Shown here: positions 6,190 to 59,964 of the stretch, in pieces
How the letters are laid out: the number at the start of each line of letters is the position of its first letter
How positions within the stretch are numbered: position 1 is the first letter of the stretch
DNA from: Planctomycetota bacterium
Lineage (GTDB): Bacteria; Planctomycetota; Planctomycetia; Pirellulales; UBA1268
DNA length: 64,000 nt
Assembly: GCA_037129495.1 (NCBI GenBank)
Contig: JBAXUW010000001.1
Location: 9,970 to 73,969 of the forward strand
Direction: 5' to 3'
Translations under genes and position numbers: made by a program
The notes under the pieces: model-generated
Database searches by the model: none
What the model saw: only the letters and a program-made list of their open reading frames with translations
Told to the model about the DNA's origin: nothing

Positions 6190-6286
6190 TTTCACGCAAA
6201 CCACGACAGCCTGTCGTGTTTGCTTGGCCGGCCTCCGCCGGCTGGTGCTTTCCATCGCATCCATCCGACGTGGCCGTTTGTATTTC

Positions 6287-6349
6287 GTGGGATAAGATTT
6301 CGAGCTTGTCCGTTTCTTCGGCACGTTGGAAAACTCGCCGCCACGGGGG
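6287..6349 (+). repeat. palindromic intergenic repeat, full copy R1
   Basis: gtgggataagatttcgagcttgtcc-gtttcttc-ggcacgttggaaaactcgccgccacggggg. It aligns colinearly with 44946-45007 and with the split copy at 49795-49819/51015-51052. The two arms are imperfectly complementary. Confidence 0.85.
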
Positions 6350-6389
6350 CGCGGGCAGCCCGCCCCAGGCGGCTGGTACACTCCTCAGC

Positions 6390-7172
6390 ATGGCAACCAT
6401 CCTTGACGACATCGTGGCCCGGAAACATCGCGAGGTGGCGATCGCTCGGCAGCGAGTGCCGACCATGGCGCTTGAGGGGCGGCTGGCGACTGCGACGCCG
6501 GTGCGGGATTTCTTTGCCGCGGTCTCGGGGCCCGGACCGATCAAGCTGATCGCCGAATTTAAGCGGAAGAGCCCATCGGCCGGTGCACTCCAGCCCGGCG
6601 TCACGGTCGAGGAGATCGTCCGCGGCTATGCGGCGGCCGGCGCAGCGGCGCTCTCCGTGCTCACCGATGCCAGCGATTTCGGCGGCAGCCTCATCGATCT
6701 TGCGGACGCCCGCCTGGCAATGCCGCTGCCGGTGCTGCGAAAGGAGTTTGTTATTGACCGCTATCAGGTGCTCGAGGCCCGAGCCCACGGGGCCGACGCT
6801 GTCCTGCTGATCGCTGAATGCCTGGATGACTGCCATCTCCGCAGCCTCTATCGGGAAATCCTTGACCTGGGCATGACTCCGCTGGTCGAACTCCACGATG
6901 CCGAGCACCTCCAGCGCGTGCTCGATCTGGGGGCCACGCTCATCGGCATCAATAACCGCGACCTCCGCACGATGACAACCGACCTCGACCATGTGCTGCG
7001 GCTGTTTGACCGCGTCCCGGCGGAATGTGTCGTCGTGGCTGAGAGCGGCATCCGCACCCGGGCTGATGTCGAGCGGCTGGAGCGGGCTGGCATCGGCGCG
7101 ATGCTCGTCGGCGAATCACTCCTGCGGAGTGCCGATCCCGGGGCCGCCGCCGCCCTCCTTCTGGGTCGCTGA
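6390..7172 (+). CDS. trpC: indole-3-glycerol phosphate synthase
   Basis: Real start MATILDDIVARK at ATG 6390, inside the over-long track ORF 5460..7172. IGPS signature IAEFKRKSPS, plus LTD..FGGS and INNRDL. Confidence 0.9.
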   Translation: MATILDDIVARKHREVAIARQRVPTMALEGRLATATPVRDFFAAVSGPGPIKLIAEFKRKSPSAGALQPGVTVEEIVRGYAAAGAAALSVLTDASDFGGSLIDLADARLAMPLPVLRKEFVIDRYQVLEARAHGADAVLLIAECLDDCHLRSLYREILDLGMTPLVELHDAEHLQRVLDLGATLIGINNRDLRTMTTDLDHVLRLFDRVPAECVVVAESGIRTRADVERLERAGIGAMLVGESLLRSADPGAAAALLLGR

Positions 7173-7910
7173 CGGTGGCGTGCCTTTCACGAATCGATAG
7201 CCCATGCCGCGGACGGAGAGGAAGTGCACCGGCCGCGCGGGATCGGCCTCGAAATACTTGCGAAGGTTGAGCATGAACGTATCGACCGTCCGCGTCGCCG
7301 GTGCGCGGGCCATGCCCCAGACCCGCTTGAGCAGGTCGCTCCGCGATGACACCGTGCCCTCGTGCTCGACGAGATACCGAAGCAGCTTCATTTCCAGATT
7401 CGTCAGCCGCACCGGCCGGCCGCTGCTCTGTGCCTCCCAGGTATCAAAGTTGACCTCCGCCACGCCGAAACTATAAGTGTTTGCGGCCGCGGCGGTAGTC
7501 TCCTCGGGGGCCACGGCCCGCGTGCGGTCTTGCCGTATTCGACGGGCCAGCAAGTTGCGGACGATCGAGAGCAGTTCATCGAGATCGAACGGTTTTTGCA
7601 GATAGACATCCGTGCCGGCGTCGAAGCCGCGAATCCGGTCCTCGACAAGCGTTCTCGCGGTGAGCATGACAACCGGCACGTCATTTCCCTGCCGGCGAAT
7701 TGCCTCGCAGACGTCGTAGCCGCTCATCCCCGGAAGCATCAAGTCGAGCACCACGAGATCGACTGAGGCCTCGCCGCCTTGGCCGGCCAAAACCGTGAGG
7801 GCGGTCTGGCCGTCTCCGGCAGTTGTCACTGCGAAGCCTTCGGTCTCCAGGTTGTATTGGATGCCGATGGCCAGATGTTCTTCGTCTTCGACGACGAGAA
7901 TGTGCGACAT
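7116..7910 (-). CDS. OmpR-family response regulator
   Basis: Receiver domain (ILVVEDEE, VVLDLMLPGMSG, LTAR, KPF) plus a winged-helix output ending GMGYRF. A ~25-aa tail overlaps the 3' end of trpC on the opposite strand. Confidence 0.9.
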   Translation of the reverse strand: MSHILVVEDEEHLAIGIQYNLETEGFAVTTAGDGQTALTVLAGQGGEASVDLVVLDLMLPGMSGYDVCEAIRRQGNDVPVVMLTARTLVEDRIRGFDAGTDVYLQKPFDLDELLSIVRNLLARRIRQDRTRAVAPEETTAAAANTYSFGVAEVNFDTWEAQSSGRPVRLTNLEMKLLRYLVEHEGTVSSRSDLLKRVWGMARAPATRTVDTFMLNLRKYFEADPARPVHFLSVRGMGYRFVKGTPPSATQKEGGGGPGIGTPQE

Positions 7911-7985
7911 GGGCGGGCGGGGTGGCGAGTCAAGAGTGGAACATGCCTAGAAATGGCCAAAACCGATTCTAGCGTCCCACAGTTG

Positions 7986-9053
7986 TCACCGCACCAGCAC
8001 GGGCCGCGGCCGGACGCCGCGGACATAACCATGGCCGATAAACCAGTCCCAGGCGTCTTGGGCAGCCACCTCGAAGGATCCCCGCGTGTAGCTGAGTTCG
8101 GCCTCGGCCCGGGCAGAGGAGAAATTGTGGGACAGCATCGACATGCTGGTTGCCGCTGAGTTGACCTGCGGTTCCTGGCTGGTGAGCAGGCCGGCCAGAT
8201 CGCCGCACCAGCCAGCCATGTGCACGAAGGGCCATGGGGCAATGCCCAGCGGCTGGAGGCGGCCTGAGATGCGGGCAAAGATCCGCCAGGCATCAAGGTA
8301 GGAAAAAGGCTGTCCACCCAGAATGTAGCGGCGGCCGGTTTCGCCGCGGGTCATTGCCGAAATAATGCCCCGCGCGACATCCCGAACGTCGACGAAATCG
8401 TTCGAGCCAGGCGGAGCGAAGAGACCGCGACCCGCACCCACCTCCAAGAGCATCCTACCGCTTGACGGCTTCCAGTCCCATGGACCGATCATGTAGGCGG
8501 GATTGACGATGACGGCATCGAGTCCCTTCTCGACTTCGGCGAGCACGGCAGCCTCGGCCTCGCGCTTTGTCACCACGTAGGGGCATTCGGGCATGCCGCC
8601 GCAGGGCGTCTCTTCGTCGGCCGGGGCGCCGTCAGACCGGAGGCCGATCGCATCGACGCTGGAGACGTGGATGAACCTTGCGCCGGCCCGTCGGGCTGCT
8701 CGTGCCACCACCCGCGTACCTTCTACATTGACATGTCGCATCTCGGCCAAGTGCCGCCAGCCGACATGCACCAGCGCCGCCGAGTGCACGACATGGGTCG
8801 CGCCGGCAACGGCCCGCTGCATGGCAGCCTCGTCGTGGAGTTCGGCCGCGACTGTTTCGATTGGCAGCCCTAAGAATGCGCTGCGGCCGACGGGATGCCC
8901 GAACAACTGCCCCGGCCGCACCAACACCCGCACGTTGTGCTCGCGGTTGACCAATTGACGAACGACGTTGTTACCAACCAGACCTGTAGCACCGGTGACA
9001 AAGCAGTTCACTGCTGCGGTGGGCTGCAGAAGAGTAGGGTTTTTGGCAATCAT
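7986..9053 (-). CDS. NAD-dependent epimerase/dehydratase family protein (extended SDR)
   Basis: Rossmann motif VTGATGLVGNNVV near the N-terminus when started at ATG 9053 (track ORF runs to 9119). YVVTK catalytic Y-x3-K. Confidence 0.8.
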   Translation of the reverse strand: MIAKNPTLLQPTAAVNCFVTGATGLVGNNVVRQLVNREHNVRVLVRPGQLFGHPVGRSAFLGLPIETVAAELHDEAAMQRAVAGATHVVHSAALVHVGWRHLAEMRHVNVEGTRVVARAARRAGARFIHVSSVDAIGLRSDGAPADEETPCGGMPECPYVVTKREAEAAVLAEVEKGLDAVIVNPAYMIGPWDWKPSSGRMLLEVGAGRGLFAPPGSNDFVDVRDVARGIISAMTRGETGRRYILGGQPFSYLDAWRIFARISGRLQPLGIAPWPFVHMAGWCGDLAGLLTSQEPQVNSAATSMSMLSHNFSSARAEAELSYTRGSFEVAAQDAWDWFIGHGYVRGVRPRPVLVR

Positions 9054-10487: not shown

Positions 10488-10536
10488 CGCCTCCGCAGGC
10501 CCCTCGTGGGTGACGTTTTCTAGCGTGTCGTCTTGC

Positions 10537-10797: not shown

Positions 10798-10845
10798 CAA
10801 TCGACAGGAAGCGATGTTTCGCGTGAAGTGAGAAACTTTTCCCAC
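10798..10845 (-). repeat. box repeat plus 'cacgcgaaacatcgc' module (copy C2)
   Basis: The minus strand reads gtgggaaaagtttctcacttcacgcgaaacatcgcttcctgtcgattgg. It is colinear with 49681-49730, gtgggataagatttctaacttcacgcgaaacatcgcatcctgcgatttt. Confidence 0.75.
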
Positions 10846-16852: not shown

Positions 16853-17058
16853 GGCAAGAAAACGTATCCCACGAGGAGAGAGGGATTCCGGAGAGCCGGG
16901 ATCGGCGGAAGCCCGACGAGCGTTGGAATTTCGCCCTGTTCAGTCCTGAACTACCAACACGCCCCACGGCGAAAGTCCAAGCGAAGGAGACTTCTGCCGG
17001 CCCGGCGGTGCAGTGCCACAGCGGGTAGCAACACGCATTTGGACAAGTTAGATCCCAC
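16853..17058. repeat. ~200-bp composite intergenic element, copy A, bounded by box motifs
   Basis: Starts ggcaagaaaacgtatcccac and ends ggacaagttagatcccac. The interior aligns with 24536-24736, sharing identical blocks gcgaaggagacttctgccggcccggcg, cacggcgaaagtcc and gaactaccaacac. Confidence 0.85.
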
Positions 17059-17070
17059 GGGCGCGACGGC

Positions 17071-19923
17071 TTACTCAGCAGTGGCTGGCAGCACGTTGAT
17101 CACTACCGGCGGCGACGACTGCTCTCCGTCGGCCTTGGTACGCAGGTGGAAGAGCCGCCGCTGCGGCTTCGCCACCGGTGCGGCGGTGATAAAAAACTCC
17201 CGCTCTTCCTGCCCTTCAACAATCAGCAGGCCGTTGAGCCCGATGTTATCCACAAACACCCCATACGGCAGGTTGCGGCCTGAATCGCTGCCGCCGAGTT
17301 CGATCCGATCCTTGAAGTCGTGCCGAGTGGCCTTGACCTTCGCGGTGATCGTCTGCCCTGGTCGGATCGAAAGCTCAAGCGGCTTGCCCGGCTCCTGTGT
17401 CACAGAGGATCGATCCTCACCCGGGAGGATTTCGACCGTAAGTTTCGGCTGCTCGGCGAGTTGGACATCGCCAATCGAGCCGAGATCCTGGACCACCTCC
17501 AGGCCATCCACCAAGGCCTTTGCCCGCACAGTCACGGCCTTGTCGGCGGCCTCGTCGGGCGGCATGCACTCAAGTCCAGCCGACAGCACACCGATCGCCT
17601 TCCGCTGGCCGGCAGGAATCTCGATCGGACCGTGGAAGACAAATCCCGCAGGCAAATTTTCGACTGTGATCACGATCGGCCCGCTGAAGCCCTCTGCCCG
17701 CGTGGCAGTGAACACCAGTTCGCGGCCGCTGCCAGGGCTGACCTTCGGATCCTTACCAGCGACCGCGACCGTAAACGCTGGAGCAGGGGGACGGATCGCG
17801 AGCGCATAGTGATAGTCGCCCGGATTTATCGCGGAGCCGCTCCCACGGACATCGGTGACCCGCACCACATACTCGCCATCGGCCGGGGCCTTGAACAAGA
17901 CCTGTGAATCGCTGCCCAACTGTCGCGTGGGCTCGTCGTCGTTTTCGTAGAAGATCGGCACCACCGGCAGGCCGTTTGGCTTTGGCTTACTGCCCGATTG
18001 CAGCGGCGTCACGATCCATGCCGGCTCGCCGAGGGCATGCGTGATCGCTGATGTGCCGAAGAAGGTGTGCCGGTCGCCCTCGCCTGGATAGACCGAGAAA
18101 CCGGAGTCGGGGCCATCGGGATACCGCCAGAGCTTCACGACCTCGCCGCTTGCATAGACATATTCGTCGAGCTCCATCTCCATCCAGTTTTGGAGCCGGT
18201 AGTCGCCCGACTGCTTGGAGTCTTTCCCGAGAAACGTAAACCATGAATCGCGGGTCGCCTGCAGGATGACCTGCACCACGGGATTGCCCGTGGAATCAAG
18301 CACCTCAATCCGCGAGTCAAGCTTCGATTTCGACCGCGCCGCATTGACGTCTAAAACGAGCAGCTCGCCAGCACGGGCCGCAAAGCGGAAGCAGTCGGGA
18401 TCACCCGCGCGGCCGATCGCCCCCTTGATCACGACCGGCAGAGAGACGGGCAGAGCCTGCGACGGGGTATCGTTTGGCTCCCGCTCGTCGAGCGTGACAG
18501 CGGCGTTACCAGCGCTTTCGGCAGCGCCGCCAACAAGCGCAGCGGGCCCGTCACGCCGAGTGACTGGTCCAGATGCAACGCCAGCGCCGAGCGCATCGAC
18601 TTCCAGAGCAACTGCCTCGAGCGAACCGTCCATCCGTCCGATCAGAAAGCTCTGAACATCCCGGGGCACGAGCACCGAGATGAGGTCTGGCTGCAGCGGA
18701 AAATCGTGCTCAAGCACGAGTTCTGGGACACTCCAGCACTTCAGCGAACGGTCTTCGGCCGACGTGAAGAGGTGCCGCCCGTCGGCCGAAAGCCCAATCG
18801 TAACAATCGGGCTCTCGTGGGCAAACAGCGCGTGGAGTGGAGGGTTGATCGCCGGCGCATCAAGCGCCGTGAGCTTCCAGAGATGGATCCTTTTGTCGCG
18901 TCCGGCGGCAATCACATGCCTGCCATCGGGGCTGAAGCAGACGCTTGAGATCTCCCCCTGCGGCTGGTTGAGCGTGTCGAGCCGAACGCCATCGACAGCT
19001 CGCCAGAGCTTGACTGTCTCGTCGGCACTGGCCGACGCGAGCAGCTTGCCGGTCGGATGCCAGGCCAGATCGAAGACGGCGCCGTTATGGCCGTCGATCG
19101 ACCGGATCAGCGACCCATCGGCCATGTTCCAGAGTTTGATCGACCGGTCGTAGCCTGCCGTGGCGAGCGTCTGCTCGTCAGGCGACAGCTCGGCGTCGTA
19201 GAGCAGGTCGCGGTGGCCTTCAAACCTGCTGATGACGGCGCCGCTGACTGCATCGCGAACCTGGGCCACGCCTGTGAGCCCGGTGATCCCACCGGCAAGG
19301 ACCAGCTGTCGGCCGTCGCGGCTGAAGTGCACCGCCGTGACCTTGCCCGGCAGGTCGGCCAGCGACAGAAGACCCGCTCCGCCAGCCGGAGCACGTGCAT
19401 CAAAAAGCTCGACCGTGCGGCCTCGCGCCACGACCAGCCGGCTGCCATCAGGGGAGACCGCTGCGGCAGTCACCGGCTTGATTCCCCTGTGAGGCGGCAG
19501 CTTCGGGACCGTGAGCGACCGGAGAATCGAGGCATCGCTCTGCGGGCCGGTGGCGCCGGCCGCAATCCAGGCCTTGAGCGTCGCTAGCTCCGCAGTCGGT
19601 ACCTGCGGCTCGTCGTCTGGCGGCATGTGGCCGCCGTCGGTGCTTTCGATCCGCTGAATCATGACCGATGCCGCGGCATCGCCGGGAGTGACCGAATCGC
19701 CCGATCCCTCGCCACCACGGCGGAGCGAGGCAAACCGCTCGACTGAAAGCTGCCCTGTCATGTCGCGGTCGTTGTGGCAGCCGGAGCAGTAGGTCCGTAA
19801 GATTGGCGTGATGTCTTGCTCATACGATGGCGCCGCGGCGACCGGCACCGCCGCGCAGACGCCGCCGACGGCGATTGCGGCCATGACGAGAAGGAGAAAC
19901 GGCTGTGTCCAATACCTGTTCAT
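17071..19923 (-). CDS. secreted c-type cytochrome domain / WD40 repeat / PPC-domain protein (PSCyt1-type)
   Basis: Signal peptide, heme motif CSGCHN, second planctomycete-cytochrome-like segment GGHMPPDD..LKAWIAAG, multiple WD repeats (LW, KLW, KCW ends), and a C-terminal pre-peptidase-like EREPNDTP..GDPDCFRF. Confidence 0.85.
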   Translation of the reverse strand: MNRYWTQPFLLLVMAAIAVGGVCAAVPVAAAPSYEQDITPILRTYCSGCHNDRDMTGQLSVERFASLRRGGEGSGDSVTPGDAAASVMIQRIESTDGGHMPPDDEPQVPTAELATLKAWIAAGATGPQSDASILRSLTVPKLPPHRGIKPVTAAAVSPDGSRLVVARGRTVELFDARAPAGGAGLLSLADLPGKVTAVHFSRDGRQLVLAGGITGLTGVAQVRDAVSGAVISRFEGHRDLLYDAELSPDEQTLATAGYDRSIKLWNMADGSLIRSIDGHNGAVFDLAWHPTGKLLASASADETVKLWRAVDGVRLDTLNQPQGEISSVCFSPDGRHVIAAGRDKRIHLWKLTALDAPAINPPLHALFAHESPIVTIGLSADGRHLFTSAEDRSLKCWSVPELVLEHDFPLQPDLISVLVPRDVQSFLIGRMDGSLEAVALEVDALGAGVASGPVTRRDGPAALVGGAAESAGNAAVTLDEREPNDTPSQALPVSLPVVIKGAIGRAGDPDCFRFAARAGELLVLDVNAARSKSKLDSRIEVLDSTGNPVVQVILQATRDSWFTFLGKDSKQSGDYRLQNWMEMELDEYVYASGEVVKLWRYPDGPDSGFSVYPGEGDRHTFFGTSAITHALGEPAWIVTPLQSGSKPKPNGLPVVPIFYENDDEPTRQLGSDSQVLFKAPADGEYVVRVTDVRGSGSAINPGDYHYALAIRPPAPAFTVAVAGKDPKVSPGSGRELVFTATRAEGFSGPIVITVENLPAGFVFHGPIEIPAGQRKAIGVLSAGLECMPPDEAADKAVTVRAKALVDGLEVVQDLGSIGDVQLAEQPKLTVEILPGEDRSSVTQEPGKPLELSIRPGQTITAKVKATRHDFKDRIELGGSDSGRNLPYGVFVDNIGLNGLLIVEGQEEREFFITAAPVAKPQRRLFHLRTKADGEQSSPPVVINVLPATAE

Positions 19924-23746: not shown

Positions 23747-24619
23747 ATGCCCCGAAACCCTCCGCCAGCCGCGCCGGTGCCTTCGCAAGGCGATCAGATC
23801 CTCGCTTTGTTCGACGCATTGCCCGATGTGATGCTGTTTGTGAAAAACCGGCGGAGCCGGTTTGTGGGGGGCAACAAGGCCTGTGCCATCATGCACGGTT
23901 GCCGCACGGCTGCGGAGATGACCGGCAAGAACGATGCCGATTTCCATCCCCCGGCGCTCGCCGCGCAGTATGTGGCTGAGGACCGCAAGGTGATGACGTC
24001 GAGACGGCCACTCCGCGACCAGGCGTGGCTGGTGCCCGACCACGCCGGCATGCCGCGTTGGTATCTCTGCACGAAGATGCCGCTCTTTGCTGCCGATGGG
24101 AGCGTCTCGGGGCTGGCTGGCGTTCTGCGTCCGTTTGATCAGGCGGGCAACGCGCCACAGGAATACCATCGGCTCACGCCGGTGATGGAACACGTGCTCC
24201 GCCACTATCGGCGGCCGATCGCACTGCCGGACTTGGCGCGGCTGGCAGGTCTATCGGTGAGTCAATTGCAGCGGGAGTTTCGTCGGCTGTTTAACATCAG
24301 CCCGGGCGACTACATCCTCTGGATGCGGCTCTCGATGGCCCGCCAGCGTCTGGAAGAGACAGCCGATTCCATCCGCCAGATCGGCGCAGACTGCGGCTTC
24401 TATGACCAGAGCCACTTCACGCGGTCGTTCAAACAGCACACGGGCCTGCCGCCGCGGCAATATCGGCAACGACACAGCCGCAGCGAGTGCAATGCAGTGC
24501 CCGGAAGCTTGGCGACGCTTGAGAGGAAGGCTCTCAGAACTTATCCCACCGGGAATTCCGGAAAGTCGGGATCGGCTGCAGCTCGACAAGCGTCGGCATT
24601 TCGCCCTGAAAAGATTTGA
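23747..24619 (+). CDS. PAS-domain AraC-family transcriptional regulator
   Basis: N-terminal PAS-like segment (LPDVMLFVKNRRSRFVGGN..) and a C-terminal AraC HTH (LAGLSVSQLQREFRR.., IGADCGFYDQSHFTRSFKQHTGLPPRQYRQ). The last ~28 codons and the stop lie inside repeat copy B. Confidence 0.85.
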   Translation: MPRNPPPAAPVPSQGDQILALFDALPDVMLFVKNRRSRFVGGNKACAIMHGCRTAAEMTGKNDADFHPPALAAQYVAEDRKVMTSRRPLRDQAWLVPDHAGMPRWYLCTKMPLFAADGSVSGLAGVLRPFDQAGNAPQEYHRLTPVMEHVLRHYRRPIALPDLARLAGLSVSQLQREFRRLFNISPGDYILWMRLSMARQRLEETADSIRQIGADCGFYDQSHFTRSFKQHTGLPPRQYRQRHSRSECNAVPGSLATLERKALRTYPTGNSGKSGSAAARQASAFRPEKI

Positions 24620-24763
24620 ACTACCAACACACATCACGGCGAAAGTCCCCGCGAAGGAGACTTCTGCCGGCCCGGCGATGCACTACCAGAGACGGTAGAG
24701 CAAATCGAGGAGGAAAGCTTTAAAAACTTATCCCACGAAAGACAGAAGACGGCGTGGATGAAG
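24536..24763. repeat. ~200-bp composite intergenic element, copy B, plus a tail module
   Basis: agaacttatcccac ... aaaaacttatcccac, then gaaagacagaagacggcgtggatgaag. The tail is the reverse complement of the module seen at 49766-49800. Confidence 0.85.
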
Positions 24764-28341: not shown

Positions 28342-28588
28342 CCCCGCTGGTGAAACAGGCGCGCGATGAAGGACAGGCCAGACAATCTCATTTCCCCGTG
28401 GAGGCGAGTTTGTGAAGTGTGCCGTTCCCACGTAAACCAAAACGTATCCCACGCCAGCCGTAACGTGGGCTCACATTCTCTGGTTCTCCATTTCCTATCC
28501 TTCTGGCCCTCTCCTCTCAGAGGGGAAAGGCAGGTGTCTCACCTATCATTGGCACAGAGGGCCTGCCAGCTAGCCCTCACAGGGTGCG

Positions 28589-34885: not shown

Positions 34886-35406
34886 GGCAAAGCTCCTTCG
34901 TGGATCGTTCTTCAGGATTCAAACAAAACTTGAGACAGACTGAATCGTGGTGCCCGCAGCACACGAAGCATCATTCGCAATGTCGCGAGTGTGATTCAAG
35001 GGCTGGGGAAATCCAGTTGAAAAAAAACGGTTTTTGAGGCCGGCCGGTTCTCCCGGCTTGCCCATTCCCCCGATAGCCGGGAGAAGACTGGCTTTGGGCC
35101 TTGGCGTGTTCTTCGTGCGGGCAACCATGAAGCCAGCACCGCAGCTTCGAGTGCCCCGGATCAGTCGCACCGCCAACGGAGACTGGGCGGGATGCGAAGG
35201 AGAAGCGGAGGGCATTGGCAGTCTCAGCGGCGGGCACTCATCGGACGCAACATTATGCACCTGTCTCCGAGGAAAATCCAGCAAATTTTTGCTTGAAAAT
35301 GGCCTGGGGTTCGAGTTTGAGGGGCGGGAATGGTAAAAGGAAGCGGCAGGAGAATCTCTGCGCTCACCGGCCGACCTGGCCACTGGCAGCATCGAGCGAT
35401 CAAACC

Positions 35407-35958: not shown

Positions 35959-36004
35959 CAGCAGACGAGGCTGATAGCGCTGGCATGCAGAGTGGGATAA
36001 CGTC

Positions 36005-44829: not shown

Positions 44830-44945
44830 TTCTTGTGGGCTGAAGAGCAGAGTAAGAGGCTTTAAACTGGGGTGGAGCGGCGTCTTATCGGGAGGCCAAG
44901 TTTCACAAAAATCATCGTCTCCAGGCGACGCGGTCTTCTGTCTTT

Positions 44946-45007
44946 TGTGGGATACGTTTTCTAACTTGTCCGCTTCGGCAGGCTCGAAAAACTCGCCTCT
45001 ACGGGTG
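44946..45007 (+). repeat. palindromic intergenic repeat, full copy R2
   Basis: gtgggatacgttttctaacttgtcc-gcttc-ggcaggctcgaaaaactcgcctctacgggtgg, colinear with R1 and R3. Confidence 0.85.
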
Positions 45008-49660: not shown

Positions 49661-49680
49661 ACGGAGTCTTACACCCTTTC

Positions 49681-49794
49681 GTGGGATAAGATTTCTAACT
49701 TCACGCGAAACATCGCATCCTGCGATTTTCACTTGGCAAACACAGTTTGCTGGTGGGAAGCGTCGCATCCATGCGCCGCAATCTTCTGTCTTTC
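49681..49794 (+). repeat. box repeat plus modules (copy C1)
   Basis: The head gtgggataagatttctaacttcacgcgaaacatcgc matches 10798-10845(-). The tail ...catccatgcgccgcaatcttctgtctttcg matches the reverse complement of 24737-24763. Confidence 0.75.
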
Positions 49795-49819
49795 GGGGGA
49801 TAAGATTTCTATCTTGTCC
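49795..49819 (+). repeat. palindromic repeat R3, 5' arm (interrupted by the IS)
   Basis: gggggataagatttctatcttgtcc. The last 9 nt (atcttgtcc) are duplicated at 51006-51014. Confidence 0.85.
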
Positions 49820-49889
49820 CAATCCTGTTCGGCACGGCAGTTGCTGCAGTTCAAGTAGCTCAACAAGGGAGTGTGGGTTGAGTTGCGCG

Positions 49890-50798
49890 ATGGGCTTGAA
49901 GCATTTCAAGGCGCTGCGGGGCTTGATCGAGCGGCTGCACTTCGCAGGGACGCAGCGGGATAAGACAGGCAATCGTGATCTGCACATGGATCAGTACTGC
50001 TCACTGCTCCTGCTGTGGTTTTTTAGTCCCATGGTCGACAGCCTCCGCGGGAGGCTAGCAGGCCGGCACGCTCGACAAGGTACGCAAGCGCTTCGGTGTC
50101 GGACGTGCCTCGCGGGGCTCGCTTTCAGGGGGCGTCGCTGTGCGGCTATCGTCTGCACACTCAGTTGGAAGTGTTGCGTGGAATTCCGTCACGGATCGAC
50201 GTGACGCCCGCTAGTCCAAAGGGTGAAAACGACGAGCGGGCGGTCCTCGCCCGCTCGGTCGAACCATACCGGATGGACGTGATGGATCGCGGCTATGCCC
50301 AGTTCTCGCTGTGGAATGTGATCGTCGCCAAGGGCAGCAGTTCCTGCTGTCGCGTCAGGGACAACTCAGCGCATGACGTCGAGCGAACCCTGGAGCTGAC
50401 CGATGCCGATCGTGCGGCTGGTGTGGTCAGTGACGAAGTGGTCGTGTTCGGCCGCCCCAAAGCACGGGTCATCCTCTGACCATCCGGTGCGAATCGTGAC
50501 TCATCGCCTCGATCTGCCCGCTGAACTCAGCGGAGAGATCTATCGGCTGCGGTGGCTGATCGAGACGTTCTTTCGGATGTTCAAGCAACTGCTGGGCTGT
50601 CGCCATCTGCTTTCCACCAAGCAGACCGGAGTGGAGATCCAGGTGTTCTTTGGAATTATCGCCTGCCTGTTGATCCTCCTCTCCACGGGCCGTAAGCCGA
50701 CGAAGCGAACCTTTGAGATGGTCTGCTTTTATCTCTCAGGCTGGGCAAGCGTGAATGAAATGGAGCGGCATATCGAAGCACTTCCTAGGCCGGCGTGA
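49890..50798 (+). pseudogene. IS4-family DDE transposase, frameshifted and internally deleted
   Basis: The coding signal is split over track ORFs 49419..50204, 50096..50479 and 50403..50798. The last carries a canonical Y-2-R-3-E-6-K motif (YRLRWLIETFFRMFK). The N-terminal part is MGLKHFKALRGL..SLRG, after which similarity continues in another frame past a TAG at 50056. The element is shorter than intact IS4 members. Confidence 0.75.
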
Positions 50799-50942
50799 TC
50801 CTTCTGCGCACCGAACGGCGCCGCAGCGATTACTGCTGCGCCGGTGACGACAACCACGCCCATCCTGCCTCGCGCTCCTGATGCTGGAGAGCATGGCGCA
50901 ACAAGCAAGCTGCAACTAGAACGCAGCAGCAGCCTCAACTCC

Positions 50943-50967
50943 GGACAAGTTAGAAAACTTATCCCAC
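50943..50967 (-). repeat. box half-copy lying inside the right end of the IS
   Basis: ggacaagttagaaaacttatcccac is the reverse complement of the repeat 5' arm gtgggataagttttctaacttgtcc. It sits 10 nt inside the right IR. Confidence 0.8.
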
Positions 50968-51005
50968 AGAGGAGGGAGCAGCAACTGCCGTGCCGAACAG
51001 GATTG

Positions 51006-51052
51006 ATCTTGTCCTCTTCTTCGGCAAGTTGGAAAACTCGCCTCCACGGGGG
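51006..51052 (+). repeat. palindromic repeat R3, TSD copy + loop + 3' arm
   Basis: atcttgtcc|tcttcttcggcaagttggaaaactcgcctccacggggg. Removing the IS and one TSD copy restores a unit colinear with R1 and R2. Confidence 0.85.
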
Positions 51053-53141: not shown

Positions 53142-53317
53142 TCCGGTCGGCGTTGCGTGTATCGAGAACGTTGCAGAGCGAGTGAAAAACGACTTAAGTA
53201 CCAATATATTATAATATCGATCATATTTGTCAAGTAGATGATATAAAAATCAAAATGGCTATTTTTATGGGATAAAAGACATAAAAAAGATTTTTTTCTA
53301 TTCAGAAAGCAGAGAAA

Positions 53318-53392
53318 CACGATTAATCATTAGCAATTTGCTAATGATTAATCGTGGCATAAAAAAAGCGTGGGCCGTCTGCGCGACCGGCA
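53318..53392 (-). terminator. candidate tandem terminator of the cys transporter operon (GC hairpin + U7, then a 39-nt perfect AT-rich palindrome)
   Basis: On the minus strand, after the cysA stop (53393): gccggtcgcgcagacggc..cacgcttttttt, then cacgattaatcattagcaa-a-ttgctaatgattaatcgtg (53356..53318), followed by tttctctgctttctg. The terminator role is inferred; an operator role is not excluded. Confidence 0.45.
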
Positions 53393-59694: not shown

Positions 59695-59934
59695 CGGAAA
59701 CTGCTCCCCACATCGGCTGATTGTGAGTGCTTTAGTTGCGTTGGCAGTTGCGGGACACTGAAGGTGGTTGCACGTGGCGTGCCAAACGACCTCTGGCTTA
59801 GAGCGAGGCTGCTTGAAAGCGGTGTTTGCCCAAAAAACGCAGGTGCGCTCTGGCGGGCGGGCTCGGGAGCACGGCCCGCCTGCTCAAAAAAAGGGCAGGG
59901 ACTGCTGCAGCCGGGGGCAAAGCAACACGGAATT

Positions 59935-59964
59935 GGACAGGTTGGAAAACTTATCCCACGGGGG
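59935..59964 (-). repeat. box half-copy upstream of the HDAC-like gene
   Basis: ggacaggttggaaaacttatcccacggggg matches the 3' arm of the palindromic repeat, with the box restored to ..cttatcccac. Confidence 0.75.

Follow-up and report, generated by a model that had tools for sequence, protein, structure and literature searches.

A probable GTAG-tagged family of repetitive extragenic palindromes with a mosaic organization in an uncultured planctomycete

A stretch of 64,000 nucleotides (nt) from an uncultured planctomycete (contig JBAXUW010000001.1), here called the window, carries at positions 6287-6349 an imperfect palindrome of 62 nt that recurs elsewhere in the same stretch. A first-pass annotation, made from the sequence alone, described it as the unit of a dispersed family resembling repetitive extragenic palindromic (REP) sequences or miniature inverted-repeat transposable elements (MITEs). 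What kind of repeat is this, how is it built and how might it have spread? In the reading we favor, to which we assign a probability of about 0.72, the flagged unit is one arrangement of a species-specific family of GTAG-tagged REPs with a mosaic organization of the bacterial interspersed mosaic element (BIME) type. The 62-nt unit is a tail-to-tail heterodimer of two short repeats, box and box', and boxes also form the junctions between other palindromic modules. The elements lie almost only in intergenic sequence, next to the 3' ends of genes.

The three full copies first reported, R1, R2 and R3, are present and colinear, and their sequences at 6287-6349, 44947-45007 and 49795-49819 plus 51015-51052 agree with the original reading, except that the GTGG head of R2 lies at 44947 and not at 44946. 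R3 is split, as had been stated, by an insertion sequence (IS) of 1186 bp at 49820-51005. The window was searched with the 15-nt box GTGGGATAAGATTTC (= GTGGGATAAGaTTTC), with up to 3 mismatches allowed and 100 shuffled sequences for comparison. Eleven matches were obtained versus 0.76 expected, a number reached by none of the 100 shuffles; the right arm, GGCAAGTTGGAAAACTCGCC, gave 2 matches versus 0 expected. The half copies listed earlier were recovered with an nhmmer profile built from R1-R3, which picked up 24712-24755, 50943-50972, 49661-49701, 28394-28456, 59933-59960 and 16854-16874. Only the segment at 53265-53275 has to be removed from that list, as it is AT-rich spacer with a weak resemblance and falls outside the family. 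A similarity at 35992 is probably due to chance. Within the window there are about nine intergenic box sites. Upstream of the box, R1-R3 share at least 27 pyrimidine-rich nt, and R1 and R3 share about 95 nt; this common stretch is module B, described below.

Beyond the window, a metagenome scan for the exact 25-nt pattern GTGGGATAMGNTTTCNNNCYTGTCC yielded 110 stretches. Almost all of them stem from a single sample, in which this organism also occurs, and many lie at contig ends. These loci and the window together comprise 631 kb, on which the repeat census is based. They contain 190 boxes and 31 box' copies, versus 0 in shuffled sequence. Had no further copies existed elsewhere, the first-pass annotation would have regarded the similarity as a local duplication; further copies are abundant.

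What is conserved is a unit of 25 nt, the box, and not the palindrome of 62 nt that had been proposed. It reads GTGGGATAAGTTTTC, then C or T, then AACTTGTCC, and is composed of an unpaired GTGG head, a 9-bp stem formed by the palindrome GGATAAGTT/AACTTGTCC with one T.G pair, and a 4-nt loop. The sister subfamily box' (GTGGAGGCGAGTTTTCCAACTTGCC) follows the same plan, with an 8-bp stem that includes one G.T pair. Across the 190 boxes the head is nearly invariant (G1 in 189, T2 in 187, G3 and G4 in 188 each); it is found in about 28 of the 31 box' copies and also in the copies of relatives. Box alone folds into the 9-bp hairpin with z = -3.0 under RNA parameters and -3.1 under DNA parameters, and the corresponding values for box' are -2.5 and -3.5. 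Stem pair 11-18 is T-A in 169 boxes, whereas 9 of the 16 boxes with A at position 11 have A-T, a compensatory change. The resulting AAGAT/ATCTT variant also occurs in relatives. Two loop variants of the box are represented by 55 and 53 identical copies; so many identical copies fit a recent spread, with the figure inflated by the collection of the loci through an exact pattern.

The right arm of the flagged 62-nt unit is a box' in inverted orientation, and R1, R2 and R3 are therefore tail-to-tail heterodimers of two REP subfamilies. In all, 15 distinct tail-to-tail (TT) dimers were found, none with flanking target duplications. Their spacer is a pyrimidine-rich run of 5-24 nt, and the C-TTCG-G loop once taken to be characteristic of the unit is not conserved. 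The long hairpin into which each unit was thought to fold did not hold up either: the long fold of the box/box' dimer contains a 6x7 internal loop and is no better than that of shuffled sequence in R1 (z = -0.4) and R2 (z = -0.1), and R3 prefers two local hairpins. About ten head-to-head (HH) arrangements with a conserved spacer also occur, and dimers constitute a minority of the sites. To the extent that the REPINs of Pseudomonas fluorescens (Bertels and Rainey 2011) are outlined by Di Nocera, De Gregorio and Rocco (2013; PMC3733652), the dimers resemble them in the two inverted REPs, the short spacer and the possible long hairpin. They differ from that outline in that their halves stem from different subfamilies, in the internal loop and in their low frequency, a doublet following only 17 of the 190 boxes. 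They are thus not REPINs in the strict sense.

The genomic placement of the boxes is equally characteristic. Gene calls with Pfam domains were taken from the database for window positions 1 to ~38,000, and genes on the loci were called with our own codon-usage caller, trained on database gene calls. The earlier statement that the copies lie outside coding sequence proved correct, as 2 of the 190 boxes overlap a called coding sequence although 79% of the sequence is called coding. There are 133 non-redundant box sites in the 631 kb, 57 of which were resolved by gene context. Among these, 29 lie between convergent, 21 between tandem and 7 between divergent genes, compared with 63, 232 and 61 background gene pairs of the same types (chi-square p = 4e-10). 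The gene ends that adjoin boxes are 3' ends in 120 cases and 5' ends in 44, and the median distance from a box to the neighboring stop codon is 41 nt. At the tandem sites, the box is oriented with or against the genes in about half of the cases each.

At the sequence level the GTAG-tagged REPs are defined by a palindromic stem-loop of 20-40 bp, a GTAG-like tag, a high dispersed copy number, extragenic placement and TT and HH dimers, and all of these were found here; a cognate transposase gene flanked by the REPs is a further defining feature. The GTAG-tagged REPs have stems of 6-9 bp and a degenerable tag, form TT and HH dimers, are located between convergent or unidirectional open reading frames (ORFs) close to their 3' ends, and occur in the Planctomycetes-Verrucomicrobia-Chlamydiae (PVC) superphylum (Di Nocera et al. 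2013). In the GTAG-20 repeats of Opitutus terrae the tag is GTGG, and repeats flank the many Y1 tyrosine transposases of Rhodopirellula baltica (Di Nocera et al. 2013). The present family shares with this superfamily the unpaired tag, the 6-9-bp stem-loop, the coexistence of several subfamilies, the TT and HH dimers, the convergent or unidirectional placement near stop codons and a PVC host. The REP-like part of the first interpretation, which had been based on the GT[AG]G-type head and the palindrome, is in this way strengthened by copy number, gene 3'-end placement and inverted dimers. The family differs from the known members in its sequence, which is new (0 exact matches in 185,579 species-representative genomes), in the partners of its boxes, which are long unrelated modules more often than another REP, and in that no cognate REP-associated tyrosine transposase (RAYT) or REPtron (a Y1 transposase gene flanked by the repeats) was found in the window or in ~0.7 Mb of the organism's contigs.

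The mosaic organization becomes apparent from the sequences that adjoin the boxes. Downstream of the 190 boxes, module A follows in 68 cases, module B in 24 and box' in 17; otherwise the sequence is unique. On its upstream side a box adjoins the 3' end of a B or A module, a box' or an IS inverted repeat. Module A is a long imperfect palindrome or hairpin of ~160 nt (z -3.2). Module B, of which 32 distinct copies were collected, comprises ~95 nt and three hairpins (hp1 to hp3). RNAalifold analysis of 20 B copies revealed covariation in hp1, with 8 of the 11 pairs changed on both sides, and in hp2, with 3 of 8 pairs so changed. Compensatory variation in hp3 was judged by eye (GCGTCGCA/TGCGACGC, GCGTTGCA/TGCAACGC and CATCGCA/TGCGATG). 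Hp1 consists of an A-tract, a stem and a U-tract; a terminator scan flagged hp1 on both strands, hp3, and the box together with its T-rich spacer, so that two of the three predicted hairpins of module B are terminator-like. No Rfam family reached the gathering score in the window, and at E <= 1 four array-rich loci gave a single chance-level match, which lies outside the box arrays; known RNA families were therefore dropped as candidates for modules A and B.

R1, R2 and R3 are each a composite of B, box and box'. B begins 2 nt after the purH stop codon in R1, it is shortened in R2, and in R3 an additional truncated box precedes it. Other loci contain box-A-box and box-B-box elements and tandem arrays with periods of 48, 81, 88, ~123 and ~184 nt. 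Five near-identical 81-nt units of box and truncated module A are present in locus L054 (61-409), three 48-nt units in L111/L088 and four ~124-nt units of box and B in L012 (3067-3464), and in L096 (~195-254) the 12-nt head GTGGGATACGTT is repeated at least 5 times. Such arrays reveal a family that readily undergoes slippage or unequal recombination. An array of clustered regularly interspaced short palindromic repeats (CRISPR) was considered and ruled out because the supposed spacers between the boxes are themselves repeated modules, such as the five 81-nt periods in L054. In L029 (~960-1021) a putative tRNA gene, judged by reading of its 3' end (...GGTTCGAGTCCCTTGTCGCCCA), is followed 6 nt downstream by a box, and this in turn by module B and another box.

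The BIMEs of E. coli and the NIMEs (Neisseria intergenic mosaic elements) of Neisseria, in which RS modules are flanked by dRS3, are intergenic mosaics of a short palindromic repeat and longer modules. BIMEs are bound by integration host factor or gyrase, and dRS3 is used as a target by phages or recombinases. For the term BIME we adopt the definition given by Di Nocera et al. (2013). Like these systems, the present family alternates a short palindromic repeat with a few longer modules and forms variable tandem arrays; both the modules and the short repeat are unrelated to theirs in sequence. With its box-A-box, box-B-box, box-box' and array arrangements it is a mosaic of the BIME/NIME type.

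A mechanism for the formation of such a family can be sketched. A RAYT, an HUH tyrosine transposase, would act on the single-stranded hairpin with its GTGG tag and thereby spread the REPs. Recombination or slippage between boxes would then shuffle the modules and build the arrays, and the elements would persist after genes, as insertions are tolerated there. Where transcribed, the hairpins and their U-rich tails would probably act as terminators or shield the 3' ends of mRNAs, as judged from their sequence pattern. That the box family depends on a RAYT is, in our estimate, less likely than not.

Several observations weigh against the assignment to the GTAG-tagged REPs. A RAYT was searched for with tblastn, using approximate query sequences of YafM, IS608 TnpA and IS200 TnpA, with a regular expression for HUH...Y-x-NP applied to all ORFs of at least 90 amino acids, and with Pfam scans of 10 genes flanking box sites. 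With these searches no RAYT or Y1 transposase was found in the window, as the first reading had already noted, or in ~0.7 Mb of the organism's contigs, which are a part of the genome. The 10 flanking genes encode Fasciclin, TPR/MerR, Dabb, RNase D-like, glycosyltransferase and other proteins, no transposase among them, and beside the repeats no protein recurs apart from the IS transposase and translated repeats. Since REPs usually flank the RAYT gene that goes with them, a box-based sample should have been enriched for one. Stem pair 9-20 is uncompensated (C-T in 28 boxes, A-G in 11, C-G in only 2). Among the window copies, the left half of the box (GTGGGATAMGNTTT) is far more conserved than the right arm, which points to a protein-binding or sequence-specific role beyond that of a simple hairpin. 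Insertion polymorphism was not seen: in strain L115, 99.45% identical over 21 kb, the same elements occupy the two covered sites, with only single-nucleotide polymorphisms (SNPs). Finally, the use of an exact 25-nt pattern inflates the apparent conservation of the box, and genes on the loci were called with home-made software.

If no RAYT is involved, the boxes might be cassette joints, 25-nt sites at which preformed terminator or hairpin modules (A and B) are inserted or swapped. A recombinase or the box-carrying DDE IS could bring this about, and such a system, if real, would supply gene ends throughout the genome of a planctomycete with terminators that act in both directions. We consider it unlikely that the boxes are such joints and not RAYT substrates. 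In a related and quite unlikely reading, the box would be a recombination site of the dRS3/NIME type at which a recombinase or homologous recombination swaps the modules as cassettes, no HUH transposase being required. Modules A and B are indeed bordered by direct box copies, the same box joins different modules at junctions that vary by microhomology (AACTTGTCCGCTTCACG versus AACTTCACG), and the unsuccessful search for a RAYT fits as well. Yet no recombinase gene recurs beside the arrays, where only the IS transposase recurs among loci, and the combination of GTGG head, hairpin and inverted dimers is the signature of RAYT substrates. Moreover, shuffling of modules by general recombination is compatible with the interpretation as a REP family and need not replace it.

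The positions of R1 and R2 raise the question of a promoter. They point toward trpC and tyrA, with the box heads ~100 and 140 nt upstream of the start codons, and GATAAGTT or TAAGTT could be seen as an AT-rich, -10-like hexamer in a genome with 64% GC. The box would then drive trpC and tyrA, or small RNA genes corresponding to A and B, for which hp3 of B and its U-rich tail would be the terminator. Every tandem B unit has a box before it and a GC-rich hairpin followed by TCTTTCTGTCTTTC at its end, the B hairpins covary as in a structured RNA, and the left half of the box shows a higher conservation than a hairpin alone would explain. A promoter or leader for trpC and tyrA is ruled out by the distribution toward convergent genes and 3' ends, which is that described for REPs, and a scan for sigma-70-type promoters (-35/-10 hexamers directed toward the gene) disclosed no promoter-like sites. 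The scarcity of divergent sites and the balanced orientation at tandem sites argue in the same direction, and the count of near-identical 25-mers (133 non-redundant sites within the 631 kb ascertained) is too high for a regulon. Transcription of small RNA genes from the box is disfavored by R1, where B has no box upstream, and by the lack of an Rfam match to A or B. Promoter function in any of these forms is very unlikely.

The IS in R3 is bounded by perfect inverted repeats of 27 bp (CAATCCTGTTCGGCACGGCAGTTGCTG), and a target sequence of 9 bp, ATCTTGTCC, is duplicated at 49811-49819 and 51006-51014. Its transposase, of the DDE_Tnp_1 type, is fragmentary. Since a box lies within the IS, 11 nt from the right inverted repeat, the repeats might be regarded as MITE-like debris of a DDE (IS4/IS5-type) IS with a box in its right end, spread by its transposase or by decay of the IS. 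Copies in loci L107, L114 and L098 likewise have a box by the right inverted repeat, and the inverted repeat adjoins 15 of the 190 boxes, some of which continue into module A or B and not into the IS interior. But this is only ~8% of the boxes, and the box is unrelated in sequence to the IS inverted repeats. The 15 TT dimers lack the target duplications that the IS produces, and the box'-type REPs of relatives have no IS inverted repeat alongside at those sites. This origin is therefore highly improbable, and the label MITE was abandoned. On a simpler reading, the IS has acquired a REP and inserts into palindromic repeats, a behavior known from ISs that use REPs as targets in Pseudomonas, Neisseria and Sinorhizobium (Di Nocera et al. 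2013). The present IS resembles these in its insertion into a REP stem in R3 and in the position of other copies beside a palindromic repeat, and differs from them in carrying a REP within its own end. In other contigs, a different palindromic repeat, AAAAGGGGACGCAGC, of which the window has no copy, usually borders the inverted repeat of the IS; this suggests that the IS may prefer palindromic repeats as insertion targets. In the relative L198 (7975-8041) the AAAAGGGGACGCAGC repeat forms a perfect palindrome.

The last alternative, chance similarity or a local duplication without a family, could appeal to the mere three full copies in the window and is refuted by counts unmatched in any shuffle and by the exact 25-nt pattern in the 110 metagenome stretches.

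How far the family extends taxonomically was estimated from conserved genes. Judged by PurH, the closest species-representative genome is 68% identical and the others are at most 54% identical, the matches at 50-54% including a Thermoguttaceae and a Pirellulaceae metagenome-assembled genome. The window genes include PSCyt1, PSCyt2, PSD1 and DUF1501, which mark planctomycetes. By exact protein matches the window corresponds to a 73-kb ENA metagenome contig and to JGI contigs, and the identical TrpC is listed at NCBI under 'Planctomycetota bacterium'. No box was present in 1.46 Mb of PurH-anchored loci from other species, nor in three metagenomic relatives with 86-87% identical TrpC and a conserved gene order. 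Two of these three relatives carry ccccGTGGCGGCAAGTTTTCAACTTGCC, a REP of the box' type, and its compensated variant GGCAAGATGCAATCTTGCC-GCCAC. In L196 and L198 the B hp1 hairpin directly follows the stop codon, at the head of the purH-trpC spacer, and in L197 B-like units lie deeper inside a longer, gapped spacer. The presence of GTGG-headed box'-type REPs and B hairpins in relatives implies that this REP type and module B are common to the clade; the GATAAG box is a recent subfamily, at about the species level. The relatives have their own intergenic palindromic repeat families, such as CATGCAAGCCCGAAGCGCCAGCGAGGG...CCCTCGCTTGCGCTTCGGGCTTGCATG in L196, at positions 640-780, 6360-6640, 7870-8048 and 14100-14335 of L196 and 2565-2725 and 20335-20470 of L197. 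Different repeat families in such close relatives indicate a fast turnover within the clade. A link to phages was also considered and dropped, the 25-nt pattern having 0 matches in viral contigs.

The family is a new, lineage-specific member of an already well-known bacterial repeat type and by itself opens no new biological question. It adds a REP/BIME-type repeat system to an uncultured planctomycete lineage for which even the nearest species-representative PurH is distant. Its practical consequences concern metagenome assemblies, which such repeats break, as seen from the many copies at contig ends, and annotation, as the repeats mark gene 3' ends and carry terminator-like hairpins. The turnover of REP subfamilies between species, during which the GTGG head is retained, is useful for studies of the co-evolution of REPs with their presumed transposases. 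The elements of the window are compiled in Table 1.

Table 1 Positions of repeat elements and of the IS in the window
Element	Position	Strand	Context
Module B of R1, three hairpins	6192..6286	+	2 nt past the purH stop codon; alignment with R3-left and 32 B copies; RNAalifold
hp1 of R1 module B (A-tract/stem/U-tract)	6202-6218	+	Match in terminator scan
Pyrimidine-rich tail of R1 module B	within 6192..6286	+	Abuts box at 6287
R1 REP box, GTGG head and stem-loop (GTGGGATAAGATTTCGAGCTTGTCC)	6287..6311	+	
R1 box' (GTGGCGGCGAGTTTTCCAACGTGCC on - strand)	6320..6344	-	Tail-to-tail with 6287-6311, spacer GTTTCTTC
Degenerate box (GTGGGTGACGTTTTCTAGCGTGTCG)	10506..10530	+	19 nt past the stop codon of the 9333-10487 gene; weak nhmmer match, E = 0.18
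Degenerate truncated box (GTGGGAAAAGTTTCTCAC) fused to module B start (TTCACGCGAAACATCGC...)	10806..10845	-	Convergent spacer by truB
Box-A-box element	16858..17058	-	Fills convergent spacer
Half box of this element	16858-16872	-	Abuts stop codon of aminotransferase gene
Module A of this element	16873-17040	-	
Degenerate box of this element, 7-nt deletion	17041-17058	-	
Box-A-box element	24525..24736	-	Between convergent AraC-type gene and hypothetical gene
Box of this element	24712-24736	-	Followed by module A and degenerate box 24525-24549
Degenerate tail-to-tail dimer (half box GTGGGATACGTTTTG ... GGCACACTTCACAAACTCGCCTCCAC)	28394..28452	-	Between convergent XylR-type and radical-SAM genes
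Start of shortened R2 module B (TTTCACAAAAATCAT)	~44903-44917	+	Just upstream of 44920
3' part of shortened R2 module B: hp3 remnant and pyrimidine tail TCTTCTGTCTTTT	44920..44946	+	
R2 dimer: box 44947-44971 (+), spacer GCTTC, box' 44977-45002 (-)	44947..45002		Divergent spacer upstream of tyrA
R3, left side	49681..49819	+	Truncated box 49681-49699, module B 49700-49794, box 49795-49819
IS, DDE_Tnp_1 type, fragmented transposase	49820..51005	+	Inserted in 3' arm of R3 box
Box inside IS	50943..50967	-	11 nt from right inverted repeat, reading inward
R3, right side: spacer TCTTCTTC and box' 51023-51047	51015..51047	-	
Single box (GTGGGATAAGTTTTCCAACCTGTCC)	59935..59959	-	Followed by a start resembling module A

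The fusion of a box to the start of module B at 10806..10845 is a junction type that recurs in loci L009, L033 and L102. The head of the R3 box is GGGG in the strain of the window and GTGG in L033. Four contigs that cover R1 are identical there.

Some differences between the window and strain L115 concern the elements or their surroundings. The gene for the AraC-type regulator ends with TAG in L115, whereas GAG at 24485-24487 of the window extends the ORF by 44 codons into the box-A-box element, to 24619; the extension may be genuine read-through or an artefact of the assembly or of a SNP. In the region 24498-24760, ~7 differences were counted in ~200 nt of box-A-box, several times the average of 0.55%, which fits a weaker constraint on module A than on the box. 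The only indels over the 21 kb are a 9-nt in-frame one in the PSCyt1/WD40 gene (19854-19862) and an A8/A9 run-length difference at 35020, in the spacer upstream of an rpoD-like gene.

The segment 53190-53370, located between two minus-strand genes, is a strongly AT-rich spacer in this genome of 64% GC. At ~53319-53357 it contains a near-perfect inverted repeat, CACGATTAATCATTAGCAA-TT-TGCTAATGATTAATCGTG, that looks like an operator or a terminator.

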